64,000 nucleotides of DNA from Hormiphora californensis (taxonomy: Eukaryota > Animalia > Ctenophora): the NCBI GenBank assembly GCA_020137815.1, contig CM035351.1:3472001-3536000 (forward strand), written 5' to 3'. Both the position numbers and the translations under genes were made by a program. How positions within the stretch are numbered: position 1 is the first letter of the stretch; each line of letters opens with the position of its first letter. The notes beneath the pieces were generated by a model that saw only the letters and a list, made by a program, of their open reading frames with translations, did no database searches and was not told where the DNA came from. Below are positions 45,001 through 48,000 of this stretch, piece after piece.

Positions 45001-48000
45001 TGCACCAAGCAATTTTCCCTTCTTAAGAAGTATAGACAATATCTTGTGTAGGTAGCGGTCGAACGTTCTCACGGCTATCACAGGGTCCTGTTTAAGAATT
45101 CGGTGCTTTTCAAACCAAGACAGGTCATTAAGCAGTTCTTGAGTGACATCAACGCCTTGGAGTCGTAATATCGCTGGTATAGAGAACACCAAATCATTAA
45201 AACTAAATGTAACAAACCATGTAAATATCCCTAACTGGTTGACCATGGCAAAGGCATCAGACTTTACCCGCTGCCAAAATGCAGGCGAGCCCTTCACATT
45301 CTTCATGAACTTCATTGCATCTATATCATTCCTCAATGCATTGTCAGAAAGATTCGTCAACATTCCAGCAGTTAATTCAGCCCCATCTGCAGTCGTTTTT
45401 GCTGATTTTCTGAGATAGGTTGTTATACCAGAGTATATGCTAGTTCTCTCAACACAGGCTTGCATCGTGAAAACATACTCAGGGTTTTGTGCAAATGCCC
45501 TATCTTGACTAAACAACCGAGCCCCCACATAATCCTTTATGGTCATATTGGGTATTTCCTTAGCCTTTATAGCCTCAGCTCTTTTTTCGTCATGAAAGTG
45601 ACCTTTTCCGAGAGGAAAAAGATGAGGGAACGCTAATGGCTCCATTTTTTTGTCGCCAATTAAAGACATAGGAGTTTCATTCTGACCAGGTGCAAAATCC
45701 ATGACAGGAGTCTTTTTAAATATGTCATCTGTCATTGATTGAACCGGGTCCTCATCCTGGATGCAACTTTCATATGGAAGGGCATCATAAGTACCCTCAG
45801 CGTCTATTGAGCAGATCAGTTGCTCCAAAATCGAACGTGCGATAACAGTAGCATTACCAGGCAGCGATATTTGAAAGAGCTCTTGGTTATCATTATAATT
45901 TTTTTCCACCCATGAATTAAAAGTGGAAACAACATTACTGTACTCAGGATTGTGATCAATAAAAAACTGTAATAATCCCAACAATTTCTTTTTGTCTACA
46001 CTATCCTGTACCAGGACTGACCTGTGCAAAACGTTCCGCTTAATCCGCACATTCATGATACCCAAGTCTGAATTCGCACGGGGTAAGGTCTCACAGGTCT
46101 CTTGTACACTAATAGGTACATTTATTACTGCACCAACCAAACCACGCTGTCCTCCAGCAGGTAGAGTTCGAATTTTCATGCAGGGCAATCTCTGTGACAC
46201 CATCCGTGCCTCCGTCGGATTTGGTTCAAGTTCCGGAGGCAGTGCACCTGTGGCAAGCATCATCTTTGTCACATCAACAGGTGAAATTGTTCCTTTCGAT
46301 TGATGTTTTTTGCACCGGGTACAGATCCATTCGGTGGAACCCTTAATTTTGGTAACACCTTGCTTGTAACATAGTTTCCGGCAGTGTTTACACACATACT
46401 CCGGGATACATTTCATAGCCTCTCGAAATTCGTTTACTACTTCCATCCGGCTGTCTGTGGTGTGGGTCTTTTTGGGACTAGTGGGCTTTTGACATTCAGA
46501 ATTACCAATAGGGTCAACGATGCTGATATTATCCAGTTTCAAATGATCATCAACCTTGACTTTTTTTACAGCTTTGTCATCAACGCAATTATTATCGACA
46601 GACTCATCTATTGCTCGTTTTTCAGCCTTTTTTCTTTGCCGATATGCTTGCTGTCGAATTCTTGCTTTCTCCTTTGCAACATCAATGGTTTTACCTGCAT
46701 CACTCGCACTATCAGTTTCACTTTCTATGATTTTGGCCTTTTTTCTAGCCCGATATGCACGCTTACGAATTTTCTCCTTTTCTTTCGCGATGTCGCTATC
46801 CATGCTATCATTTCCGCTTTCAAGGATTGCAGTCTTTTTATTTTCCCTATAATCTCGATTTCGATTTCTCGTCTGTTCCCTAACCACATCATTATCTGTT
46901 TTTTTTCTTGCTCTATACGCCCGCATCTTAATTCTATTCTTCCCCTTCTTGTCAATGTTTGCTGAATTACGGCTATCACTTTCATATTCAGTGTCTGTTC
47001 CTGAAAGACTAATACTTGACGAAAGAGATATCTCATCAAGATCAAAGTAGGGTGTAAAATCAACATTGATAACAGAATCATCAATAAAATCATCATCATA
47101 CTTTGATGCAACCTCTACCAGCTCGTCCATTGAAACGTCGCTCCCACCTGCCTCATCATCAATGAATGGATTGGAAATAGGACCTGGGTTAGTTTCAACA
47201 TCACCACTCATCAGTAATCTGAGCATTACCACCGATTGGGCAGCATACAAGTATCCACACGACATAAGGCTAGTTGTACATAAATCGAAGTTTATGATGT
47301 TTAACTGCTGATATGTATTTGGAAATGATATCCCAGCTGTAGTCCATATCAAAACCCAACACAAGGAAGTCGGAATTGAGTATACATATTTATATAGCTC
47401 AATCCTTCTCCGCCATCTCTTCAAAACTCGGCATGAATCGTGAGTGTATACAGGCAACGGTTGGTCATTAACAAACCACAGTAACACTAGGGAATCATGA
47501 GGAACAGAATGTTGCATACCATGAATAATTTCCAGTACACACCTCCAAAGAATGTCAGCGACAACATTTACAAAATCCCAGATACCAGAGTTGCTTTGAA
47601 ACTTGGTTGTTGGATCTGTATCAAAGCTGTTGATTACACATGCAGTTCCACCTCTGCATCTGCTCATTGAGTCATTCATTTTATCGCTCAAGTTTATAGG
47701 GATTGTTAAATTAACAATTATCCCCAACAATAGCATTAGGTTAATCAGTCGGCGCATATTGGATTTACTAATCCGCGATTAATCCGGTAGATAATAAAGT
47801 TTTAATCACCGACTTTCTTTTCGATAGTAACCTAAAACGTAAAGTTTTTTTCCGACAAAACTTTTTTCTTGACAATCGATAGACTGAATTTCGCAAATGA
47901 AAATCGCGCGCGATCACGAAATACCGAAGTGAGGCGCGCGCGGCAACTAATATTAATCTCGCGTGTTACAGTCTATCCGCGCGCGCGAATATTCCTCCGC

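Follow-up and report, generated by a model that had tools for sequence, protein, structure and literature searches.

Can a DNA transposon split its one long replication protein during translation? The question is raised by a locus of the ctenophore Hormiphora californensis (GenBank assembly GCA_020137815.1, contig CM035351.1, positions 3,472,001 to 3,536,000), a 64,000-nucleotide stretch referred to here as the window. Its minus strand carries a Helentron, a rolling-circle element of the HLE2 type, in which a single open reading frame (ORF) of 2089 amino acids (aa; window 47757->41488) joins an N-terminal leader to a transposase with Rep and helicase parts (RepHel). A sequence-only reading had placed a 2A, or StopGo, ribosome-skipping motif between the two. 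The 2A peptide together with its leader is a real, conserved feature. By sequence comparison, the ORF is probably split there, a membrane-type leader being released and the transposase continuing at Pro193.

The ORF is made up of the following parts.

47182..47757, minus: 192-aa leader with a hydrophobic N-terminal stretch, LWxVxDxPxP and WRRR blocks and more hydrophobic segments
47179..47238, minus: 2A/StopGo-like peptide, class A / LLxSG type, predicted skip at G192/P193 (between nt 47182 and 47181)
46993..47172, minus: acidic conserved N-terminus of the predicted mature transposase (NPFIDDEA...FIDD...PYFD)
46620..46884, minus: three basic repeats (repeat family D6; from the translation)
44482..46392, minus: CxxC...CxxC finger, DUF6570 and HUH Rep domain (Pfam; motif positions)
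42985..43614, minus: PIF1 helicase core (Pfam, aa 1382-1591, E 2.9e-19)
41491..42027, minus: C-terminal domain with D1919, Q1948, C1953 and H2078-W conserved (alignment rows and an AlphaFold2 (AF2) model)

The peptide and the leader before it

The peptide, LRLLMSGDVETNPGP, spans aa 179-193, with its core DVETNPGP at aa 186-193 (nt 47202-47179, minus strand). It is, as first read, a perfect D(V/I)ExNPGP preceded by LL.SG, and no second D[VI]ExNPGP occurs when the window is read in all six frames; one other bare NPGP, near 36885, is unrelated and lies in a stop-rich frame. The chance of the core arising from the protein's own composition is ~6e-6 per protein. DVETNPGP agrees with the class A core, D(V/I)ExNPG/P, and VVMLRLLMSG (3 Leu in 10 residues) with the Leu-rich, hydrophobic upstream part that ends in (A/S/C)G.

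Conservation is highest at the peptide. P0002 and P0092 each match its last 10 residues completely (10/10) and 13 of its last 20, whereas identity among 2A-type elements is 39% for the leader and 28% for the basic linker. The peptide sits directly before the conserved acidic NPFIDD motif, at the front edge of the conserved transposase, and the 60 aa that follow it are 64-68% identical in 2A-type relatives. In each of the three 2A elements, skipping would give a new N-terminus 3 residues ahead of the NxFIDD anchor. None of them has a Met between peptide and anchor; the first one downstream lies past the anchor, at a position not common to the three, and the anchor must therefore be read from upstream. 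Loss of leader and motif in related elements had been named beforehand as the outcome that would count against the idea; because both are conserved at the transposase edge in P0002 and P0092, the idea came through this check. The proposed scan of RepHel proteins gave an expanded StopGo core in 2 of 90 full-length relatives (P0002 and P0013), where 0.0014 were expected. P0013 is a distant Helentron with endonuclease and OTU domains (EN+OTU), carrying GVEKNPGP at aa 21 behind a 20-aa hydrophobic leader. In its cluster of 35, GVEKNPGP also occurs in P0101 and P0110 among the 14 other members listed, mostly fragments, and the P0013 line likely represents an independent gain of 2A.

A query of aa 1-200 against 1.84 billion representatives returned five matches. 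P0092 has the leader, the 2A and the acidic motif, P0002 came second, and P0094 is a partial leader. The remaining two, P0093 and P0095, matched via several 2A-like motifs only and were rejected as leader homologues; they carry tandem 2A-like motifs, with up to five matched stretches in 314 aa.

The leader begins with MRRLINLMLLLGIIVNLTIP, has a 12-residue Kyte-Doolittle (KD) peak of 2.89, and contains 7 Cys and 6 Trp. Of the signal-peptide-like start and the Cys/Trp-rich hydrophobic segments first described, the start was found again, and the later segments are weak in this copy, where none exceeds 1.6 (19-residue window; ~1.0-1.2); a second hydrophobic segment reaches 2.0-2.1 in two homologues. 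Identity is 39% to both P0002 and P0092, with scores of 235 and 244 against shuffle maxima of 48 and 52 (500 shuffles). The frame is stop-free over 178 codons (chance 6e-6), whereas 16 and 12 stops interrupt the two alternative frames. Open and conserved, the leader is therefore a selected protein. All four leaders share a basic start, a hydrophobic stretch, (N/H)xTIP, LWxxxDxPxP, a basic RR block and a second hydrophobic segment. A sequon at Asn16 is present in 3 of the 4. Signal-peptide n- and h-regions are present in 4/4 (12-residue KD 2.7-3.0), and the (N/H)xTIP that comes next offers no obvious cleavage site. The leader is likely a membrane protein, whose hydrophobic stretch would act as a signal peptide or a signal anchor.

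Searches for the leader elsewhere gave no match in phages and nothing usable in the ESM Atlas. Proteins of 76-508 aa yielded P0092 and P0094 only, and a profile search over 509-2000 aa, a weak one that excludes full-length RepHels of >2000 aa, found it on no non-Helentron protein. The AF2 model (5 rows; predicted local distance difference test, pLDDT, 38.5) was not used for fold search. Four metagenome loci (L001-L004) matched over aa 11-60 only, at 36%, with a re-test E of ~5e-4 to 1e-3 and with neither 2A nor RepHel, and were rejected as chance.

Downstream of the peptide, the acidic stretch and basic repeats anticipated from sequence were both found; the three repeats, of family D6, may be NLS-like (nuclear localization signal) or DNA-binding. 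Pfam matches on the ORF are DUF6570 (502-609), Helitron_like_N (743-941) and PIF1 (1382-1591). Within the HUH Rep part, motif 2, VEFGDRGSPHLH, lies at aa 927 and YVLAYATK at aa 1085. The helicase extends to about aa 1870, and solved PIF1 and Helraiser structures are among its relatives.

The same junction in sister lineages, and the C-terminal domain

The clade considered here comprises this protein and eleven relatives, P0002-P0012, at 41-68% identity. The nearest named relatives are from ctenophores, namely P0002 of Pleurobrachia bachei (68% over aa 440-1340) and a Bolinopsis protein (46%). Six of the eleven reach the junction: P0002 with a 2A, and the other five, from four lineages, with GG at the same place. 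The GG junctions read QQWGG-G, QQKGG-G, LMYGG-G and PLHGG-G, with KLYGG-A in the cluster mate P0117. An assumed cut after GG would fall 3-5 residues before the NxFIDD anchor in the four lineages (QWGG, QKGG, MYGG, LHGG/LYGG), the anchor being present in three of these and set by eye in the LHGG/LYGG lineage. GGG occurs once in four of the five junction-bearing GG proteins and twice in the fifth, the chance being 0.0045 per given 10-residue window. Since an LxGG-type site before Rep was found in 0 of 79 non-clade relatives with a narrow pattern ([LMI][RKHYT]GG), the GG junction is not shown outside the clade.

The leaders of the GG lineages are unrelated to the 2A-type leader. In P0004, P0006 and P0009 the N-terminal 650 aa consist of an SGNH/GDSL hydrolase and an AlkB-type dioxygenase, in frame before the GG junction; the leader of P0012 has no Pfam match. 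A dioxygenase is listed as HLE2 cargo in the HELIANO paper, whose sections compared here do not name SGNH (PMC11417382; for this and the papers cited below, statements apply to the sections compared).

A quick first tree contained 44 rows, with one in three of the distant rows. A careful tree of 16 rows, one per near-identical group, was rooted on 7 distant HLE2. In the latter the 2A pair is nested, two GG lineages lying outside it and two beside it (support 99/96 and 94/96). Holding all non-2A clade members together was rejected by the approximately unbiased (AU) test (p-AU 0.011), although this group was named only after a first tree had been seen, which tells against the result. The simplest history would have an ancestral GG replaced once by leader plus 2A, and a 2A acquired separately in the P0013 line. 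As far as the alignments suggest, a 2A cassette has most likely taken the place of a protease site at which the transposase is set free. The LxGG and QxGG junctions look like the C-termini of ubiquitin and SUMO. Di-glycine is where viral deubiquitinases cleave polyproteins (PMC9741609).

A candidate enzyme lies at the other end of the ORF. The sequence-only reading had named a putative protease, and a protease-like domain was indeed found here. The C-terminal domain, of 180 aa, is present in those clade proteins that run to the end. Its D, Q and SCGY are invariant in 10 of 10 aligned rows, and HW in 9 of 10 (the P0002 model ends differently). It thus holds a conserved Cys, His and putative oxyanion Gln, as in papain-like enzymes, and its AF2 model has a pLDDT of 82. 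Among 48,161 solved chains the best match, a weak one, is the OTU deubiquitinase 7bu0 (Z 5.8, root-mean-square deviation 4.1, 124 residues); other papain-like folds follow at Z 3.7-4.3, mixed with unrelated folds. Atlas leads, all <0.9, include Herpes_teg_N, Josephin, C58 and C39 clusters. The domain has no Pfam protease match, and a local profile found it in none of the compared proteins outside the clade. When the P0003 protease domain was modelled in complex with its own GG junction, the score was 0.00, and the model was not used as evidence. A circularly permuted Ulp1-like fold is conceivable from the order of its motifs. On its residues and model, the domain is likely a cysteine protease, weakly papain-like. 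It is intact in the 2A element, and junction cutting is therefore not its only job.

From these parts a mechanism may be proposed. The ribosome would release the 192-residue, probably membrane-bound leader at the 2A and carry on at Pro193 with the Rep-helicase. The junction would be a processing site throughout the clade, its ancestral form cut after GG, probably by the element's own C-terminal cysteine protease, until one lineage swapped in a cassette of hydrophobic leader and 2A. Co-translational release would suit a membrane leader better, because a fused transposase would be tethered outside the nucleus. Skipping would probably be partial, some read-through or drop-off also limiting transposase output. 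Since its catalytic residues are kept in the 2A lineage, the protease likely also acts on host ubiquitin-like tags, which have been shown to be targets of other Helentron proteases. The ORF of this endonuclease-less HLE2 is thus likely built as cargo, processing site, transposase and protease, with 2A in place of the GG site. A wider proposal is possible and is held tentatively: that the RepHel ORFs of Helentrons encode genuine polyproteins whose N-terminal slot can take different cargo (SGNH plus AlkB or an orphan membrane protein), release being effected by an undescribed, possibly circularly permuted self-protease at a ubiquitin/SUMO-like GG or by ribosome skipping, with more than one switch from the first to the second. 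A DNA transposon would thereby make its own membrane protein.

Skipping and its alternatives

Published measurements bear on whether the peptide skips. The cricket paralysis virus (CrPV) 2A has 12 of its last 13 residues in common with it and a listed activity of 0.9 (PMC12338488); in the same work class A peptides skipped in 14 of 17 cases, and short versions under-report. A Leu-rich upstream helix and -SG have been tied to activity in functional screens (PMC13405545, PMC12846837). Viral StopGo peptides such as that of CrPV also share the LLxSG-type upstream hexapeptide and separate an upstream protein from a helicase-bearing replication protein, whereas the present element is a chromosomal DNA transposon in which Pfam recognizes no capsid family (PMC12338488, PMC12846837). 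Skip-and-continue is rather likely the main role of the peptide.

Several points weigh against this reading and the processing scheme built on it. Only three independent 2A elements were found, and five of the eleven clade proteins do not reach the junction, apparently through downstream starts or spliced gene models. The leader has no known family and no Pfam match. By the title of a 2010 article by de Felipe, N-terminal signal sequences can reportedly inhibit 2A cleavage. The protease assignment is weak, since Z 5.8 is within the range of common arrangements, and Foldseek with the protease model against PDB and BFVD gave nothing at E<=0.001. In a pooled screen of 20-mers in human cells, 4 of 13 look-alikes with intact NPGP skipped (two rows without NPGP being dropped from the count), divided as LLLSGDVETNPGP 3/7, LILSG.. 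0/2, LMSG.. 0/1 and RLLLSGDVE.. 1/3 (PMC13405545). Two of the 13, including the closest-ending one, LMSGDVETNPGP, were classed there as 'non-skipping, reduced protein', the sole GGVEKNPGP row did not skip, and a coral peptide before a VTD/PIF1-matched protein was 'falloff only'.

These last results could mean that the peptide is mainly a throttle, lowering transposase output by ribosome stalling or drop-off with clean skip-and-continue as a minor outcome, a reading that we regard as unlikely. The 20-mer ending in LMSGDVETNPGP and the coral peptide both behave as it predicts, and the screen reported reduction for 59-70% of retrotransposon peptides, linked to 3-6 leucines, of which there are 3 here (PMC13405545). 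The leucine count is not conserved, though, because P0092 has 2 and P0002 has 5, and a throttle leaves unexplained both a site that matches the GG register within 2 residues and the escape of the transposase from a membrane-type leader. Quite improbable is a start of the transposase at M178, 16 residues from the peptide end, the leader being a separate product or rarely read; the 2A would then be short and N-terminal, as in long interspersed nuclear elements (LINEs) and sea-urchin NLR proteins, and trans-splicing or an internal promoter would be needed. All three 2A elements have a Met there, the leader of P0013 is of just this short kind, and spliced-leader trans-splicing occurs in ctenophores. 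Yet six in-frame Met codons precede M178, the leader reads through in frame without a stop and is conserved in three elements, a simple scan shows an acceptor-like site within it only at 47487, and Met is common in hydrophobic helices.

Slightly more improbable still is that leader and 2A were captured from a LINE and that the peptide is an inactive relic, the fused protein being cut by signal peptidase or by the element's protease. A 2A behind a hydrophobic leader is common in AP endonuclease-type (apurinic/apyrimidinic; APE-type) LINEs (PMC3708506, PMC13405545), and gene capture by Helentrons is known (PMC11417382). An inactive relic would be expected to drift, but the peptide's last 10 residues have stayed invariant between flanks ~60% diverged; the junctions have no LxGG-like site in common, a nearby AGG being missing in P0092, and the leader was found on no non-Helentron protein in the weak searches above. 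Capture from a LINE as origin is compatible with an active peptide. The sequence-only reading had gone furthest in seeing a virus-like gene set, in which the leader would be an envelope or movement protein, the knuckle protein of a second gene (described below) a nucleocapsid and the protease a maturation enzyme, allowing cell-to-cell or extracellular spread. One element does combine a conserved orphan leader of membrane type with a CCHC knuckle gene and a domain resembling a protease. Nothing supports particles, however, a point that weighs also on our own scheme: Pfam finds no capsid, envelope or fusogen family in the element's ORF, although the leader, an orphan without usable model, might still have such a fold. 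Moreover, no relative of the Rep or protease domain was found in viral contigs, the knuckle gene was seen in this copy only, and the GG lineages carry SGNH and AlkB-type domains instead, so that the leader slot appears to hold interchangeable cargo. A virus-like element is therefore very improbable. Proteases of Helentrons are already known (PMC9741609, PMC4067079). Splitting at the 2A, with the transposase continuing at Pro193, is the reading preferred here.

The element, its surroundings and known systems

The element and its non-coding features are as follows (strand given where assigned).

39145..48182, minus: Helentron (HLE2) element, ~9.04 kb (from sequence; both ends T-rich, uncertain by a few T)
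48172..48181, minus: 5' subterminal inverted repeat (subTIR), 10 bp, TTTCCCCGCC, exact reverse complement of 39173-39182
39173..39182, minus: 3' subTIR, GGCGGGGAAA
48123..48172, minus: two 5' hairpins, 13-bp and 9-bp stems (DNA fold -27.4 kcal/mol)
39149..39168, minus: 3' stem-loop, beyond the right repeat (fold -9.1 kcal/mol)
40767..41102: 83-bp unit, four tandem copies (repeat family D3)
39748..40344, minus: second predicted gene, 145 aa, proline-rich, with CCHC knuckle (spliced prediction)
38902..39138: flank duplication copy 1, 237 bp, outside the element, 99.2% identical to 48183-48417
48183..48417: flank duplication copy 2, outside the element

The 5' edge is marked independently by a 93%-identical partial copy whose match ends at 48182/16087, and TTTCCCCGCC recurs in the window only in this copy, at 16077. 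The 5' hairpin fold (z -8.8) was equalled by 0 of 200 shuffles and that of the 3' stem-loop (z -2.5) by 3 of 200. Rfam gave no match within 38500-49000. HUH Rep is fused to PIF1 helicase (PF14214, E 1.9e-25; PF05970, E 2.9e-19), as in HLE2. The Ser between G and P of Rep motif 2 that marks Helentrons (PMC4067079) is present, with F/Y-x-R just upstream, in YFGRVEFGDRGSPHLH, where the middle residue of F-x-R is G, outside the listed ones, and the Q of ExQ is replaced. DUF6570 (Pfam E 9.8e-10) is an HLE2 marker (PMC11417382). Subterminal inverted repeats and a 3' stem-loop are found, the 10-bp repeat being slightly under the cited 12-16 bp. Because Exo_endo_phos, the AP endonuclease family, had no Pfam match in this protein (P0001) or in P0002, P0004, P0006, P0009 and P0012, the element is filed as an endonuclease-less HLE2; it contains no endonuclease, OTU or VTD domain. 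T-rich ends, as for insertion at TT without target-site change, are seen, but the 237-bp flank is duplicated and there is no empty site to compare. The duplication has 6 extra bases at the 3' junction. We know of no target duplication for Helentrons; read-through capture, recombination or an assembly artefact may account for it.

The partial copy (15983-16087, minus) comprises 105 bp of the element's 5' end with both hairpins, and lies within ORF 16026-16580. It directly follows an OTU-like reading frame (Pfam OTU E 0.0015, below the cut-off), which it appears to interrupt, and no matching 3' subTIR was found for it in the window. A 38-44-bp piece of the element's 3' non-coding region (39444-39487), internally repeated, occurs also at 2287-2324 and 55778-55821. 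CGCG is clustered at the element's ends, with 10 occurrences in the 428-bp 5' region (47760-48180) and 4 in the 3' region (39186-39700) of 73 in the window; these are possibly promoter elements.

A knuckle protein had also been read from the sequence, and a spliced zinc-knuckle gene is predicted. The last Cys of the knuckle is completed only by splicing of a 159-nt GT-AG intron (40111-39953), and the ATG stands directly behind a splice-acceptor-like site, which could reflect trans-splicing or an upstream exon. Its unspliced pieces have no Pfam match. One RNA run gave a single 35-base partial match, in this proline-rich gene. Elsewhere in the window, five adjacent Cys/His-rich ORFs (17188-22814, minus; 168-385 aa) without Pfam match are perhaps pieces of one large zinc-finger-like gene, and a MITE-like (miniature inverted-repeat transposable element) 178-bp inverted repeat, 94% complementary with a 7-nt spacer, lies outside the element at 50261-50623.

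With Helentrons/HLE2 as described (Thomas et al. 2014, PMC4067079; Li et al. 2024, HELIANO, PMC11417382) the element shares the subTIRs, the 5' inverted repeat, the 3' stem-loop, T-rich ends, RGSP in Rep motif 2, DUF6570, PIF1 and, in its relatives, AlkB-type cargo. It differs in having no AP endonuclease, OTU or VTD, in its 10-bp subTIR, in the 2A with a membrane-type leader and in an unlisted C-terminal Cys/His domain. Neither a 2A nor a GG junction is described in the sections compared of those two papers, the first of which already holds the idea of a captured protease cleaving RepHel subunits. Other Helentron ORFs carry cysteine proteases of the VTD and OTU type, and viral papain-like proteases target di-glycine sites in polyproteins (Erven et al. 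2022, PMC9741609); the domain here, by contrast, is C-terminal, without Pfam protease match, and ordered D..Q..C..HW. Self-cleavage at GG is shown for no Helitron in the sections compared of that paper or in the other literature compared.

APE-type non-long-terminal-repeat (non-LTR) retrotransposons (L1Tc, Ingi, CR1, Crack, L2; Odon et al. 2013, PMC3708506) likewise have a class A 2A with a Leu-rich helix, placed before the enzymatic part of a mobile-element ORF, whereas the element here is rolling-circle DNA with no reverse transcriptase, a long conserved leader and a site that alternates with GG in sisters. In sea urchins, too, a 2A-like signal sequence determines whether the protein behind it goes to the secretory pathway or to the cytosol (Roulston et al. 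2016, PMC4981915); in that case the 2A serves as the N-terminal signal, and here it comes after a 192-aa leader. A further published case is the coral protein (PMC13405545, supplement 4, row 102), which bears a 2A and matches 'PIF1 helicase' and 'viral tegument-like DUBs' (deubiquitinases), and which from these structure matches is probably a Helentron N-terminus. Its authors filed it as a DNA helicase and classed it as falloff only, and 'Helitron' occurs in neither the text nor the four supplements searched. The word is likewise absent from the main-text sections compared of PMC12338488, PMC12846837, the Snell and Matreyek preprint, PMC3708506 and bioRxiv 10.64898/2026.09.24.754024, and from the supplements of PMC12338488 and the Snell and Matreyek preprint. 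A full-text literature search, to which Repbase and subscription journals were outside scope, gave no paper on 2A in Helitrons, and among the matches listed for ctenophore Helentrons and Helitrons no title concerns a 2A junction. Among the matches listed for 2A peptides, the one paper with the word 'helitron' deals with lincRNAs, and StopGo appears in none of those listed for rolling-circle DNA transposons.

The literature searched describes StopGo in RNA viruses, in retroelements and in a few cellular genes, but does not describe it in DNA transposons. With a 2A at the likely cut site of sister elements, these transposons probably split one long protein as viruses do. Two orphan proteins are highlighted by the comparison: the leader, which is conserved and of membrane type, and the Cys/His domain, which is well folded and belongs to no known family. 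The junction would mark the start of the mature transposase, which is relevant to studies of HLE2 transposition, and the suggestion made in PMC4067079 can now be tested directly, at a given site and with a given enzyme. If true, the exchange of a protease site for a 2A at one junction would mean that Helentrons process their giant ORFs like viral polyproteins.

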